Of a DNA stretch of 64,000 nt, positions 1,428 through 4,957 are shown piece by piece; position 1 is the first letter of the stretch, and each line of letters begins with the position of its first letter. The DNA is taken from NCBI GenBank assembly GCA_043801155.1, contig JAZDMI010000021.1, positions 2,683 through 66,682 on the forward strand, written 5' to 3'. The translations under genes and the position numbers were made by a program. The notes below the pieces were generated by a model. The model made no database searches. It saw nothing but the letters and a program-made list of their open reading frames with translations, and was not told where the DNA came from. This DNA is from Candidatus Gottesmanbacteria bacterium (GTDB lineage: Bacteria > Patescibacteriota > Microgenomatia > JAMCYU01).

Positions 1428-2270
1428 ATGGTTAGTCTTGCCCAAACCATAAATGAAATTAAGTCATTAAAAATTCAGGGTGCCACCAATGTTGCCCGTT
1501 CGGCGATCAGTATTTTAAGTGATGTTCCCCAGATTAGATTAAATGAGACAATTGACGAACTAATTTCTACCCGGCCAACCGAGCCATTGCTGCAAAACTG
1601 TCTTAATTTAGTTAAATTAAAAGGAAAAATTGTTATTCCATTGATTTTAGCAAGACTTGATAATATTGAGGATGAAATTGTTAAAAATGGTGCGTCTCTT
1701 ATTAAAAATGGTGACATAATTTTAACCCATTGTCATTCTTCATCGGTGGTTAAACTTTTTAAATATACCAAGAAAAAAGGAGTTGATTTTAAGGTTTATC
1801 TAACGGAAACCCGGCCGGTTTTCCAGGGAAGGATTACTGCCGGGGAATTAACTGAAGCCGGAATAAATTCAACCATGATTACTGATTCCGAGGCTTCCTT
1901 TGTAATCAGCAAAGAGGATAACCTGGATATTAACACAGTTTTTCTCGGAGCCGATGCCATCGACAAGAATGGATCAATATATAATAAAGTCGGCAGCTAT
2001 GGCATAGCTCTTTCAGCCTCAAAGGCCAATATACCTATATATATAGTATCCACCCTGCTTAAATTCTCGGTTAAACCGGTAATTATTGAAGAAAGAAAAG
2101 GCAAGGAAGTTTGGTCAAATAAGCCTAAAAATCTCAAAATATTTAATCCGGCTTTTGATAAAGTTCCGGCGGAATTAATCACCGGATTGGTTAGTGAATT
2201 TGGCATTATTAAACCCAAAAAAGTAAAATTCATGGTTAAAAAAAATTACCCTTGGATATTAACGGGTGAG
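1428..2270 (+). CDS. ribose-1,5-bisphosphate isomerase (eIF2B alpha/beta/delta-like, e2b2) module; no in-frame stop before the downstream RuBisCO
   Basis: eIF2B-like fold sequence (GATNVARSA..., ...ILTHCHSS..., ...GADAI...NGSIYNKVGSYGIAL); the reading frame continues uninterrupted into 2529..3701. Confidence 0.6.
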
Positions 2271-2528
2271 ACGCTGAGGTCGCCCATTAGCGATTTTTTC
2301 GGTACAAAACCTGCGAGGAGTCGTCCCGACTCTGTCGGGACTCCTTTCGTTCCTCAAAAATCGAACGGGCTCCCCGCGTCTCACGAAAAAAATTCGTTCT
2401 CCCCTTATAAGTCCTATTCGGCGCTTCAAGATTCCCGAGCTTACAGCGAGGGTGAATTGAAGCAACGAAAAACACCTTACAGGTGTTATCTTCATCTTAA
2501 TGAAAAAGTTAACCTTAAAAATCACATT

Positions 2529-3701
2529 ATGGCTGATTTTATTTTAACAGTTAATAAGGATGAGGATTTTTTGGAGGTTGCCGGCGGAATTGCCACCGAG
2601 TCTTCAATCGGCACCTGGACGCAAGTGACCACCCAATTAAAAAGCGTTTGGGAAAAACTTCATGCTAGGGTGCTTAAGGCAGATAAAAACAGCGGGTCTT
2701 TGCAGATTGCCTATCCGTTGGATCTTTTTGAAAAAGGGAATATTCCCCAATTATTGTCATCGATAGCCGGTAATGTCTATGGACTGAAGGAAGCTTCTTG
2801 TCTTAGATTGGATGATATTAACTTGCCCGAAAATTATGTTAAAACTTTTCCCGGGCCAGCTTTTGGCATCGATGGGATAAGAAAAATTACCGGTGTTTAC
2901 GGCCGGCCGTTAATTGGTTGTATCATTAAACCCAAATTGGGGCTGGACTGCGAAAAGCATTCAAAAATAGCCAAAGAAGTTTATGAGGGGGGAATTGATT
3001 TCGTCAAGGATGATGAAAACTTAACCTCTCAAGAATTTAATCCGTTTGAGAAAAGAGTTTCATTGATTATGAAATATTTAATTGACTCGCATCAATTAAA
3101 TAAAATATATGCTTTTAACGTAACCGCACCATCAGACAGAATGTTAAAAAGAGCTAATTTTATTAAAACCCATGGCGGAAATTGTGCGATGATTGATTTT
3201 TTAACGGCTGGTTTTTCCGGATTGCAGTCACTCCGTAGCGCTAATCTGGGTTTAATTATTCATGGCCATCGAGCTATGCATGCAGCTCTGGATAGAATAC
3301 CAAACCATGGCATATCAATGCTGGTCTTGGCAAAATTAGGAAGATTAGCAGGGTTGGATTCTTTGCATAGCGGAACAGTAATTGGTAAGATGGAAGGTGG
3401 AGAAAAAGAAATAATAAATATCAATAAATTTTTATTAGGCAGTTGGTATGGATTAAAACCGGTTTTACCGGTAGCCTCCGGAGGTTTGTATCCCGGATTA
3501 ATACCTGACTTAATCAAGATTTTAGGTAAGGATATTCTTTTAAATTTTGGCGGAGGGATTCACGGACATCCGCAAGGCTCAAAAATGGGTGCCATAGCAG
3601 TATTGGCGGCGGTTAAGGCTTATCAAAAAGGGATATCATTTTCAGAAAGTGCCAAAACCAATAAAGCCCTGGCAGTAGCTTTAGAGAAATGGCCAATATG
3701 A
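2529..3701 (+). CDS. RuBisCO large-subunit-like protein, form II/III (nucleoside-salvage type); either a C-terminal domain of the fused ORF 1428..3701 or an independent CDS starting at ATG 2529
   Basis: 'GGIDFVKDDENL' (carbamylated-Lys KDDE motif), 'LIIHGHRAMHAAL', and the C-terminal 'ASGGLYPG...NFGGGIHGHPQG' loop motifs. Confidence 0.8.
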   Translation: MADFILTVNKDEDFLEVAGGIATESSIGTWTQVTTQLKSVWEKLHARVLKADKNSGSLQIAYPLDLFEKGNIPQLLSSIAGNVYGLKEASCLRLDDINLPENYVKTFPGPAFGIDGIRKITGVYGRPLIGCIIKPKLGLDCEKHSKIAKEVYEGGIDFVKDDENLTSQEFNPFEKRVSLIMKYLIDSHQLNKIYAFNVTAPSDRMLKRANFIKTHGGNCAMIDFLTAGFSGLQSLRSANLGLIIHGHRAMHAALDRIPNHGISMLVLAKLGRLAGLDSLHSGTVIGKMEGGEKEIININKFLLGSWYGLKPVLPVASGGLYPGLIPDLIKILGKDILLNFGGGIHGHPQGSKMGAIAVLAAVKAYQKGISFSESAKTNKALAVALEKWPI

Positions 3702-4957
3702 AAAAAACTAATAAAACAATAGCTATTCAGGCAATCAGGGATAAATTAGTTGGTAAAAGACTTTCCTATCAGGAAATATTTGCCCTGATGGATGAAATTG
3801 CTAATCATAAACTGGGCCCGGTTTTAACAACTTATTTTGCTGCGGCTGGATTTAAAGAAGGTTTTTCCAATCCCGAACTGTTTTTTCTTACCAAAGCGAT
3901 GGCCGAAACCGGCGAAAAACTTCATTTTAAGGGAATTGTAGCCGATAAACACTCCACCGGGGGAATTGCCGGAACCAGGACAACGATGATTTTGGTGCCG
4001 ATTATCGCTTCTGCCGGTATAAAGATTCCTAAAAATTCTTCTCGGGCAATCACTACTCCTTCCGGAACAGCCGATACGATGGAGGTCTTAGCTCCGGTAA
4101 CTTTTATGCCACGACAAATTGAGCAAATAGTTTATAAAACTGGCGGTTGTATTGTTTGGGGAGGTCATTTAGGGCTTGCTCCGGCCGATGATATTATTAT
4201 TCAGATTGAGGAACCGTTAGCTTTTGAGTCTTTTGATAAAATTATTATTTCGGTTATGGCTAAAAAAGTTGCTTCGGGAGCCAATCATGTTATTATTGAT
4301 ATTCCAGTTGGGCCGACCGTTAAAATAAAACATTTTACCGATGCTGAACTTATTGCTAAAAAAATTACCTTTTTAGGCAAGCAGTTCAAAATAAAAATTG
4401 TGACCGATATCAACCAAATACTTGAACCGGCCGGCCGGGGAGTTGGTCCGTCACTTGAGGCCAGAGATGTCTTAAGAGTCCTTGAACAATTACCAGATAG
4501 GCCGCTCGCATTAGAAAGAAAAGCCTTAAAATTATCTGGCCGGCTTTTAGATCTTTGTTTTGCTGATATGAAAGGGAAAAAGGTTGGTACTGGTGAAGAA
4601 GTCGCTGATCAGATTCTTAAATCGGGTAAGGCCCTAGACAAAATGAGAGAAATTATAAAAATTCAGGGCGGTAATTCCAATATCTCATCAAGCAGGATAA
4701 AACTAGGTAAATTCAAAGAAGAAATAAAAAGTACCAGGAAAGGAAGAATTATAAGTTTGGATAATCATCAGATGACAGTTATCTGTAAAATCTTAGGCGC
4801 CCCGGCAGATAAAGAAGCAGGTATTTTTTTGGGTAGGCGGGTTGACGAAAAAGTAGACAAGGATGATATACTATTTATTATGTATTCTTCCGACAAATGG
4901 AGATTAAAAGAGGCGCAGGAAACATTAAAAAATTTACCAATATTCAAGATTGAATAA
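3689..4957 (+). CDS. AMP phosphorylase / thymidine phosphorylase family (DeoA-like)
   Basis: 'KHSTGGIAGTRTTMILVPIIASAGIKIPK...SGTADTMEV' pyrimidine-nucleoside phosphorylase signature; start overlaps the RuBisCO stop. Confidence 0.8.
   Translation: MANMKKTNKTIAIQAIRDKLVGKRLSYQEIFALMDEIANHKLGPVLTTYFAAAGFKEGFSNPELFFLTKAMAETGEKLHFKGIVADKHSTGGIAGTRTTMILVPIIASAGIKIPKNSSRAITTPSGTADTMEVLAPVTFMPRQIEQIVYKTGGCIVWGGHLGLAPADDIIIQIEEPLAFESFDKIIISVMAKKVASGANHVIIDIPVGPTVKIKHFTDAELIAKKITFLGKQFKIKIVTDINQILEPAGRGVGPSLEARDVLRVLEQLPDRPLALERKALKLSGRLLDLCFADMKGKKVGTGEEVADQILKSGKALDKMREIIKIQGGNSNISSSRIKLGKFKEEIKSTRKGRIISLDNHQMTVICKILGAPADKEAGIFLGRRVDEKVDKDDILFIMYSSDKWRLKEAQETLKNLPIFKIE

Follow-up and report, generated by a model that had tools for sequence, protein, structure and literature searches.

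Putative AMP-salvage locus of Candidatus Gottesmanbacteria with an isomerase-RuBisCO fusion and a hairpin element in its linker

The AMP pathway of Thermococcus kodakarensis, reportedly described by Sato in 2007 and by Aono in 2012 and 2015, is said to employ the AMP phosphorylase (AMPpase) TK0353, the ribose-1,5-bisphosphate (R15P) isomerase TK0185 and the form III-b ribulose-1,5-bisphosphate (RuBP) carboxylase (RuBisCO) TK2290. Here we describe a related locus in a 64,000-nt (64-kb) stretch of DNA from Candidatus Gottesmanbacteria, which belong to the Candidate Phyla Radiation (CPR); this whole stretch is called the window below. The locus lies at 1428-4957 on the + strand and encodes an isomerase and a RuBisCO fused in one protein, followed by a DeoA-like phosphorylase. 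Its closest described counterparts are likewise from Gottesmanbacteria. According to Jaffe et al. (2019, PMC6389311; cited throughout from part of its text), Form III-c RuBisCO is abundant in these bacteria and has the catalytic residues in place, the isomerase-RuBisCO fusion and the gene order have already been reported, and some III-c Gottesmanbacteria have homologs of phosphoribulokinase (PRK).

A preliminary description of the window, made from the letters and a list of open reading frames, had proposed a co-directional cluster for AMP salvage, and this is borne out by family scores, matches to solved structures, ligand residues, synteny and the literature. We regard the locus as very probably a two-gene, translationally coupled operon for CO2-incorporating AMP salvage. 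The route proposed at the same time, from AMP via R15P and RuBP to 3-phosphoglycerate, is supported by the sequence comparisons as one of the archaeal/CPR type. The truncated DeoA protein would convert AMP, and probably other nucleoside monophosphates, to the free base and R15P by phosphorolysis; the isomerase (e2b2) domain would convert R15P to RuBP via Cys102 and Asp176; the Form III-c domain would carboxylate RuBP to two molecules of 3-phosphoglycerate, with a carbamylated Lys527 and with Mg2+ on Asp529 and Glu530; and the 3-phosphoglycerate would enter lower glycolysis. The fusion would set a 1:1 stoichiometry and hold the source of RuBP beside its consumer. The data directly show the identities of the domains, the conserved residues, the fusion, the synteny, the clade membership and the presence of a hairpin element; the enzymatic activities, substrate channelling, translational coupling and mobility of the element are inferred.

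Layout of the locus and assignment of its modules

The locus consists of the following features (window coordinates, with the basis of each in brackets).

1428-3701, + strand: isomerase-RuBisCO fusion open reading frame (ORF), 757 amino acids (ORF list; Pfam IF-2B, RuBisCO_large_N and RuBisCO_large all in one protein)
1428-2258, + strand: predicted eIF2B-like R15P isomerase domain, residues 1-277, with Cys102 and Asp176 (NCBIfam ribulose_e2b2, PDB matches, ligand residues)
2259-2471, + strand: interdomain linker, 71 amino acids, residues 278-348 (linker lengths in the family, GC content, AlphaFold2)
2272-2378, no strand assigned: core of an imperfect palindromic hairpin element, ca. 107 nt, CGCTGAGGTCGCCC...CTCCCCGCG, lying in frame in the linker, with an outer stem at 2265-2384 (RNA fold, shared motif, copies in relatives)
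2472-3701, + strand: Form III-c RuBisCO large-subunit domain, residues 349-757, with the Pfam domains from residue 364 (NCBIfam, PDB, motifs, neighbour-joining tree)
3689-4957, + strand: DeoA-like putative AMPpase, 422 amino acids (419 from the ATG at 3698), without the archaeal N-terminal domain (NCBIfam, PDB)
3698-3701, + strand: ATGA start/stop overlap of the fusion gene and deoA, candidate for translational coupling (read from the sequence; called likewise in relatives)
4969-5172, + strand: cysteine-rich small ORF, 67 amino acids, 3' of deoA (ORF list; no Pfam match)

In the fusion protein, Pfam recognizes IF-2B at residues 37-263 (E 6e-55), RuBisCO_large_N at residues 364-470 (3e-30) and RuBisCO_large at residues 480-755 (2e-75), and the ORF of deoA contains Glycos_trans_3N, Glycos_transf_3 and PYNP_C. 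The matches of all three modules far exceed chance. The isomerase and RuBisCO parts lie in a single reading frame without a stop codon between them and are joined by the 71-residue linker. The modules had initially been described as three consecutive, overlapping genes; all three are indeed present on the + strand at 1428-4957, but they are encoded in two ORFs and an overlap exists only at the deoA junction. There the TGA stop codon of the fusion gene occupies 3699-3701, and the candidate ATG start codons of deoA are at 3689 (13-nt overlap) and 3698 (the ATGA overlap). The 4-nt overlap is also called in the relative loci L081, L083 and L094.

The RuBisCO half scores 463 bits with the rubisco_III model of NCBIfam (TIGR03326) and 457.9 bits with the general large-subunit model NF003252, above the cut-off of 438, as compared to 247 bits with the form II-type model NF010002 and 179-227 bits with the MtnW and OiaX models for RuBisCO-like proteins. 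The nearest solved structure is that of Pyrococcus horikoshii RuBisCO (2CWX, 357 bits), followed by 6HUN and the T. kodakarensis enzyme (1GEH/3A12). The motifs for catalysis and substrate binding are intact: ESSIGTW (residue 391), GNVYG (448), KPKLG (501), KDDE (527), HGHRAMH (612), HSGTVIGK (647), SGG (684) and GGGIHGH (708), among them both signatures quoted in the preliminary description (KDDE and GGGIHGH). The mapping of these motifs onto spinach numbering we take to be established knowledge. Form II/III RuBisCO carries an insertion of ca. 29 amino acids. The 'III-like' RuBisCOs are marked by an insertion of ca. 11 amino acids (Jaffe et al. 2019, PMC6389311). Neither insertion is present in the window protein, which when aligned to the form III-b enzyme 2CWX shows only deletions of 1-3 residues and zero insertions.

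A neighbour-joining tree of RuBisCO sequences (204 sequences, 399 columns, Kimura distances, 100 bootstraps) places the window protein in a 54-member clade with 98% bootstrap support, composed of 48 fused sequences including that of the window and six that are called as unfused. This fused clade is in turn part of a CPR clade of 88 members (80% bootstrap) that includes P0057, named 'RuBisCO long chain, Form III-c' and the one labelled III-c reference in the tree, and the III-b enzyme of P. horikoshii belongs to another, archaeal clade (99% bootstrap). OiaX was the sole RuBisCO-like protein in the tree and served as outgroup, so that the tree itself is no test of a RuBisCO-like protein at this locus. 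By scores, motifs and tree position the domain is assigned as a bona fide Form III-c RuBisCO and not as form II/III, III-like or form IV. The form II/III assignment made at first therefore has to be replaced, in view of the 247 bits for the form II model against 463 for type III and the position in the III-c clade. A form IV (RuBisCO-like) identity, which had been named as a possible objection, is contradicted by the rubisco_III score as compared to those of the MtnW-type models and by the complete catalytic motifs.

Sequences from three GTDB records titled 'Candidatus Saccharibacteria' (L001, L003, L011) also fall within the CPR III-c clade. The e2b2 gene is directly followed by rbcL in L001, L003, L007 and L029, and in the first three of these deoA comes next as well. 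L007 and L029, titled Promethearchaeati and Nitrososphaerales, respectively, are short contigs from archaea-labelled metagenome-assembled genomes (MAGs). These may be CPR contigs assigned to the wrong bin, or they may reflect true lateral transfer.

The isomerase domain matches the NCBIfam model ribulose_e2b2 (TIGR00511) at residues 4-276 over the full model length with 157.7 bits, which is the best full-length equivalog match; the mtnA model (TIGR00512) reaches 121.7 bits and matches in its C-terminal two thirds only. In the PDB, T. kodakarensis R15P isomerase (3A11) ranks first with 120.2 bits and its P. horikoshii counterpart (5YFJ) second with 120.0 bits; Bacillus subtilis MtnA (2YRF) follows closely with 111.5 bits. 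The ligands of R15P were compared in an alignment with fused and unfused e2b2 homologs, with the numbering of P. horikoshii PH0208 and the ligands that its structures define (PMC5789824). Eight of the nine side-chain ligands are kept (C135, D204, N214, K215, Q166, R65, S137 and K240). The catalytic residues Cys135 and Asp204 of PH0208 correspond to C102 and D176 and are invariant in 20 fused homologs, and five of the six ligands of the 1-phosphate (R22, R65, Q166, K215) and 5-phosphate (S137, K240) are conserved. The 5-phosphate ligands are present as S104 and K212, as a bisphosphate substrate requires.

Another conceivable identity for the locus is a module for salvage of methionine and 5'-methylthioadenosine consisting of an MtnA-type isomerase and a RuBisCO-like enolase of the MtnW type. 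The scores for TIGR00524 (172.8 bits), TIGR00512 and 2YRF (111.5 against 120 bits for the R15P isomerases) would agree with it, as would the 179-227 bits that the RuBisCO half obtains with the MtnW and OiaX models. We nevertheless consider such a module very improbable: the type III models score about twice as high on the RuBisCO half (463 and 458 bits), the carboxylase motifs are all intact, the e2b2 model is matched over its full length but mtnA only in part, and the neighbouring gene product is nearest to AMPpase. The retention of S104 and K212, seen in the comparison with fused and unfused e2b2 homologs, may likewise argue against an MtnA-type substrate. The first half of the fusion, for which a match to 5-methylthioribose-1-phosphate isomerase had been named as a counterargument, is thus nearer to R15P isomerase, both in model scores and in its 5-phosphate ligands.

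The DeoA homolog passes the cut-off of the NCBIfam subfamily model NF003338 (ca. 449.9 bits; cut-off 434) and scores 423.9 bits with AMP_phos (TIGR03327) and 205 bits with Y_phosphoryl. Among PDB entries, T. kodakarensis AMPpase (4GA4/4GA5) gives 272 bits versus 126 bits for the best pyrimidine-nucleoside phosphorylase; by these scores the protein is closer to AMPpase than to thymidine/pyrimidine-nucleoside phosphorylases. Its matches to AMP_phos and NF003338 begin at profile position ca. 79-84 and the alignment to the T. kodakarensis enzyme at residue 87 of the latter, which means that the archaeal N-terminal domain of ca. 85 residues is missing. There is no upstream coding space for this domain because deoA overlaps the RuBisCO stop codon. 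In the unfused CPR relatives L001 and L003, ca. 285-290 nt separate rbcL from the start of the DeoA match, which leaves room for the domain. A deletion of ca. 80 N-terminal amino acids in DeoA is conserved in Gottesmanbacteria (Jaffe et al. 2019, PMC6389311).

The fusion and the source of ribulose-1,5-bisphosphate

A 100% identical protein of 757 amino acids, annotated 'MAG: ribulose-bisphosphate carboxylase large subunit [Candidatus Gottesmanbacteria bacterium]', is found in NCBI on a contig of 272,544 bp. Some 48 further clusters of fused proteins (691-757 amino acids) with all three Pfam domains were recovered from NCBI, JGI, ENA and Logan assemblies; they are 45-69% identical over the full length. 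Their occurrence in independent assemblies indicates that the fusion is real and conserved and not an accident of assembly. The gene order sortase-RuvX-fusion-deoA-small ORF-YceG is kept in L081, L083, L085 and L094, with rpoB shortly 3' of YceG in L081 and L094, the same as in the window. The small ORF between deoA and YceG contains a CxxC...CxC pattern and has a counterpart of 62-69 amino acids in the same four loci; its position is conserved and it has no assigned role in the pathway.

The fusion could be suspected of being an artefact of assembly or frame, such that there are two genes and the 213-nt 'linker' is a stop-free intergenic spacer. In favour of this are the unusual length of the linker, its high GC content and its hairpin-forming sequence with a terminator-like stem-loop at 2323-2341, as well as the relative L094, in which a frameshift splits the two halves. 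An artefact is nonetheless extremely improbable, considering that the ca. 48 fused homologs come from four collections and have mostly short linkers of 9-25 amino acids, and that the head of the RuBisCO part has no start codon accompanied by a recognisable ribosome-binding site, its first methionine (residue 370) already lying within the N-domain. L094 belongs to the fused clade and its RuBisCO ORF begins inside the conserved C-terminus of e2b2 (MVKKNYPWI), which marks it by its sequence as a broken fusion and not as the ancestral two-gene state.

Distant III-c loci contain e2b2, rbcL and deoA as separate consecutive genes with gaps of 15-89 nt, and L093 has an unfused e2b2/rbcL/deoA series with a 17-nt overlap. 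One indel would fuse such adjacent or overlapping genes, and the fusion probably originated from an e2b2 and an rbcL gene in this arrangement by loss of the stop codon and adjustment of the frame. In a scan of GTDB genomes with the fused protein, none of 80 loci among the matches listed was fused; they are mostly archaeal and unfused, and they include examples of the separate e2b2-rbcL-deoA series.

Besides the isomerase domain, PRK is a conceivable supplier of RuBP. The RuBisCO would then serve chiefly in a PRK-dependent route, either partially Calvin-like or similar to the reductive hexulose-phosphate pathway, with the AMP branch in a secondary role. PRK homologs and near-complete sets of Calvin-Benson-Bassham genes occur in Gottesmanbacteria with III-c or III-like RuBisCO (Jaffe et al. 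2019, PMC6389311), and methanogens pair form III RuBisCO with PRK (PMC5241800, cited from part of its text). This assignment of the main flux appears unlikely, given that the RuBisCO shares one polypeptide with the R15P isomerase and is coupled to deoA, which ties it to the AMP route, and that no match to PRK (PF00485) was obtained among the scanned ORFs of the window, the unscanned ORFs at 58.6-64 kb all being shorter than 250 amino acids. The absence of PRK anticipated in the preliminary description accordingly holds for the scanned ORFs; for the organism it is not to be assumed, since some III-c Gottesmanbacteria have the enzyme (PMC6389311). The PRK and AMP routes are mutually compatible.

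Several points weigh against a role of the locus in AMP salvage. All three enzyme modules stay below the NCBIfam equivalog cut-offs (e2b2 157.7 against 314.1 bits, rubisco_III 463 against 497.45, AMP_phos 423.9 against 535), and DeoA is without the N-terminal domain of the archaeal enzyme. In the isomerase, the 1-phosphate ligand R22 is replaced by Q17, a glutamine that fused and unfused CPR e2b2 proteins share almost without exception. Of the seven residues that form the allosteric AMP site in the archaeal isomerase, only N209 is kept, with R124, R190, K194, R229, W231 and D290 changed to L, S, S, N, P and T. No Form III-c enzyme, fused protein or truncated DeoA has a measured activity, and the PRK of some Gottesmanbacteria may provide a second source of RuBP (Jaffe et al. 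2019, PMC6389311). As to the AMP-activator site, which in archaea lies at the hexamer interface, we considered whether its loss is a consequence of the fusion; this was rejected, as the site is missing from the unfused CPR homologs too, and the loss is therefore a trait of the CPR lineage.

With salvage of AMP as the preferred function, the module is a textbook case of a CPR organism with minimal metabolism that would draw glycolytic carbon from scavenged nucleotides. As a natural fusion of isomerase and RuBisCO, the protein may be a case of RuBP channelling, and it offers a handy single-polypeptide target for the first biochemistry on a Form III-c enzyme.

The hairpin element and other features of the window

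Most fused homologs have Lys/Ser-rich linkers of 9-25 amino acids; those of the window protein and four close relatives measure 53-71. The linker DNA has a GC fraction of 0.51 versus 0.36-0.39 in the flanks, and its RNA fold has a z-score of -5.0. The peptides encoded by the linker include TLRSPISDFFGTK. In the AlphaFold2 model both domains are confidently predicted, and residues 281-348 have a predicted local distance difference test score (pLDDT) below 50 and no secondary structure; the linker is predicted to be disordered.

The linkers of L081 and L083 have a motif of 26 nt, GCTGAGGTCGNCCNNNAGCNATTTTT, in common with that of the window, where it lies at 2273-2298. Its translation is L-R-S in both the window and L083 but A-E-V-A in L081, and these differing frames point to conservation at the nucleic-acid level. 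In a metagenome scan the motif had only two further exact matches, on contigs unrelated to RuBisCO (L087 and L088). The copies of the element span ca. 107-124 nt, form a GC-rich hairpin and are located at 6903-7018 in L081, from ca. 5791 in L083 (5' part only), at 43-166 in L087 and at 979-1094 on the - strand in L088. In L088 the whole unit of ca. 116 nt is read in frame and falls within a loop of a 449-residue glycosyltransferase of the GT39/PMT type, and in L087 the reading frame of a third gene is open through the copy. The copy in the L081 linker and that in L088 are 92% identical (108/117 positions) and their flanks are unrelated. An ortholog of the glycosyltransferase from Gottesmanbacteria (P0124) is without the insert, and two others (P0123, P0125) have diverged versions of it. 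The four full copies have a common terminal stem of 26 pairs, in which six pairs show compensatory changes.

We tentatively propose, with a confidence that stays just short of even, that these copies represent an undescribed family of hairpin elements of ca. 110-125 nt in Gottesmanbacteria, which would insert in frame into genes and be homogeneous within and divergent between lineages, the linker being a tolerated landing site. The long disordered linker of this lineage would then be due to the in-frame insertion of a tolerated hairpin-forming repeat. It is also quite conceivable, if on balance doubtful, that the insert is not mobile and stems from neutral drift of the linker with compensated frameshifts, or that it is a functional RNA acting in a pause of transcription or translation. 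The inserts that the window protein, P0002, P0003 and P0004 have at one and the same site could go back to one ancient event, and the low copy number (one in the 64-kb window, no additional one in 177 kb of related loci apart from those on which the model was built, two further exact motif matches in the metagenome collection) is in line with this, as is the terminator-like hairpin inside the insert. Linker drift, however, cannot put the same sequence into another gene, and the near-identical unit in the L081 linker and the L088 glycosyltransferase gene with unrelated flanks, the ortholog P0124 without insert, the different frames in which the motif is read and the stem pairing maintained by compensatory changes all speak against a non-mobile insert. 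The evidence suggests a low-copy hairpin element, similar to the Rickettsia palindromic elements discussed below and tolerated in the disordered linker, as the most economical reading, with mobility as its putative property.

Searches with the element returned little else. Rfam gave no match, neither for the whole window at gathering thresholds nor for the linker at E <= 10, and a covariance model of the element detected no extra copy, either in the window or across 14 related loci (177 kb). The 47-residue insert peptide, compared with HMMER to 1.84 billion representative proteins, had a single uninformative repetitive match; the insert peptide of P0002 gave no candidates in a word-index search, and a scan of viral contigs for the 26-nt motif found none. 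Two known types of structured nucleic acid were considered and rejected by eye, a hammerhead-like ribozyme because the core CUGAUGA...GAAA is absent and an integron attC site because GTTRRRY is absent.

Some further features of the linkers may be mentioned. The terminator-like stem-loop at 2323-2341 lies inside the element and reads GTCCCGAC-TCT-GTCGGGAC, followed by a T-rich tail. The start of the RuBisCO domain, SPYKSY, occurs twice at 2400-2491 (as SPYKSY and then TPYRCY), on either side of a hairpin of ca. 50 nt at 2421-2470, an arrangement reminiscent of a short duplication on both sides of another small palindrome. Another palindrome family, GTCATTGCGAGGA...TCCTCGCAATGAC, translated as VIARKE...PRNDG, is present in the linkers of P0010 (L082, ca. 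1330-1440) and P0004 (L083, ca. 5830-5960), where in L083 it makes up the second part of the linker. It seems that palindromic inserts of different kinds have entered the linker.

Elsewhere in the window, the gene for ribosomal protein S10 (22704-23012) is located ca. 34 kb from those for L3 and L4 (57437-58589), which means that the normally contiguous S10 operon is interrupted. The intervening 34 kb is mostly accessory, with genes for MazG-like, NYN, Fic, GNAT, NUDIX, Mrr and PD-(D/E)XK nuclease proteins, a type I restriction-modification system (hsdM/S/R, 27.6-34 kb), DegV, GTPases, a DEAD helicase, a B12-radical SAM protein, LytR and a second YceG, and parts of it have a lower GC fraction of 0.32-0.35. 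The two YceG/MltG paralogs of the window are encoded at 5173-6141 (322 amino acids) and 54904-55881 (325 amino acids). A motif of 29-32 nt, TTGCCTTTTTGGGTCTGCTGATTTAAACT, occurs eight times, mostly in gaps between ORFs at 34932-38931 (and at 57313); it may be a shared promoter/operator or a repeat.

Comparison with known systems

The module is ordinary and already known from the Gottesmanbacteria described by Jaffe et al. (2019, PMC6389311), with which it shares the RuBisCO clade, the fusion, the gene order, the deletion of ca. 80 amino acids in DeoA and the phylum. Nothing essential separates the two; the window copy has a 71-residue linker with the hairpin element, and in the part of that paper cited here no mention of such inserts is found, so that the linker element is a minor unreported side observation.

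With the T. kodakarensis AMP pathway the locus appears to have the same three reactions in common; the nearest solved structures are from Thermococcus and Pyrococcus, and residues for catalysis and substrate binding are conserved. Unlike the Gottesmanbacteria locus, the archaea possess three separate proteins, and the N-terminal domain of AMPpase is absent here. The isomerase differs from the archaeal R15P isomerases in the unconserved AMP-activator site and in the glutamine at the position of R22, and the RuBisCO is of Form III-c and not III-b. The form II/III RuBisCOs of Peregrinibacteria/SR1 and of Methanococcoides burtonii are likewise bona fide and belong to the CPR nucleoside pathway; the window enzyme is set apart from these by its model scores (247 bits with NF010002 versus 463 bits for type III), by the lack of an insertion relative to 2CWX and by its III-c clade.

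For the linker element, the closest analogs are the Rickettsia palindromic elements, which Ogata et al. in 2000 reportedly described as hairpin repeats of ca. 100-150 nt lying in frame in unrelated protein genes. These elements are also mentioned in PMC1779305. If the linker element is mobile, it would be a modest addition to this picture: CPR genomes would carry in-frame palindromic 'selfish' DNA, fusion linkers could absorb such DNA, and annotators would be warned that an odd insert of low complexity and high GC content in a CPR protein can be a repeat element. Common to both is a short hairpin repeat that lies in frame in unrelated genes and is translated as an extra peptide at a surface or loop. 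The two are unrelated in sequence family and in phylum, and the element described here is so far of low copy number, with three to four orthologous copies in linkers and copies at two other loci.

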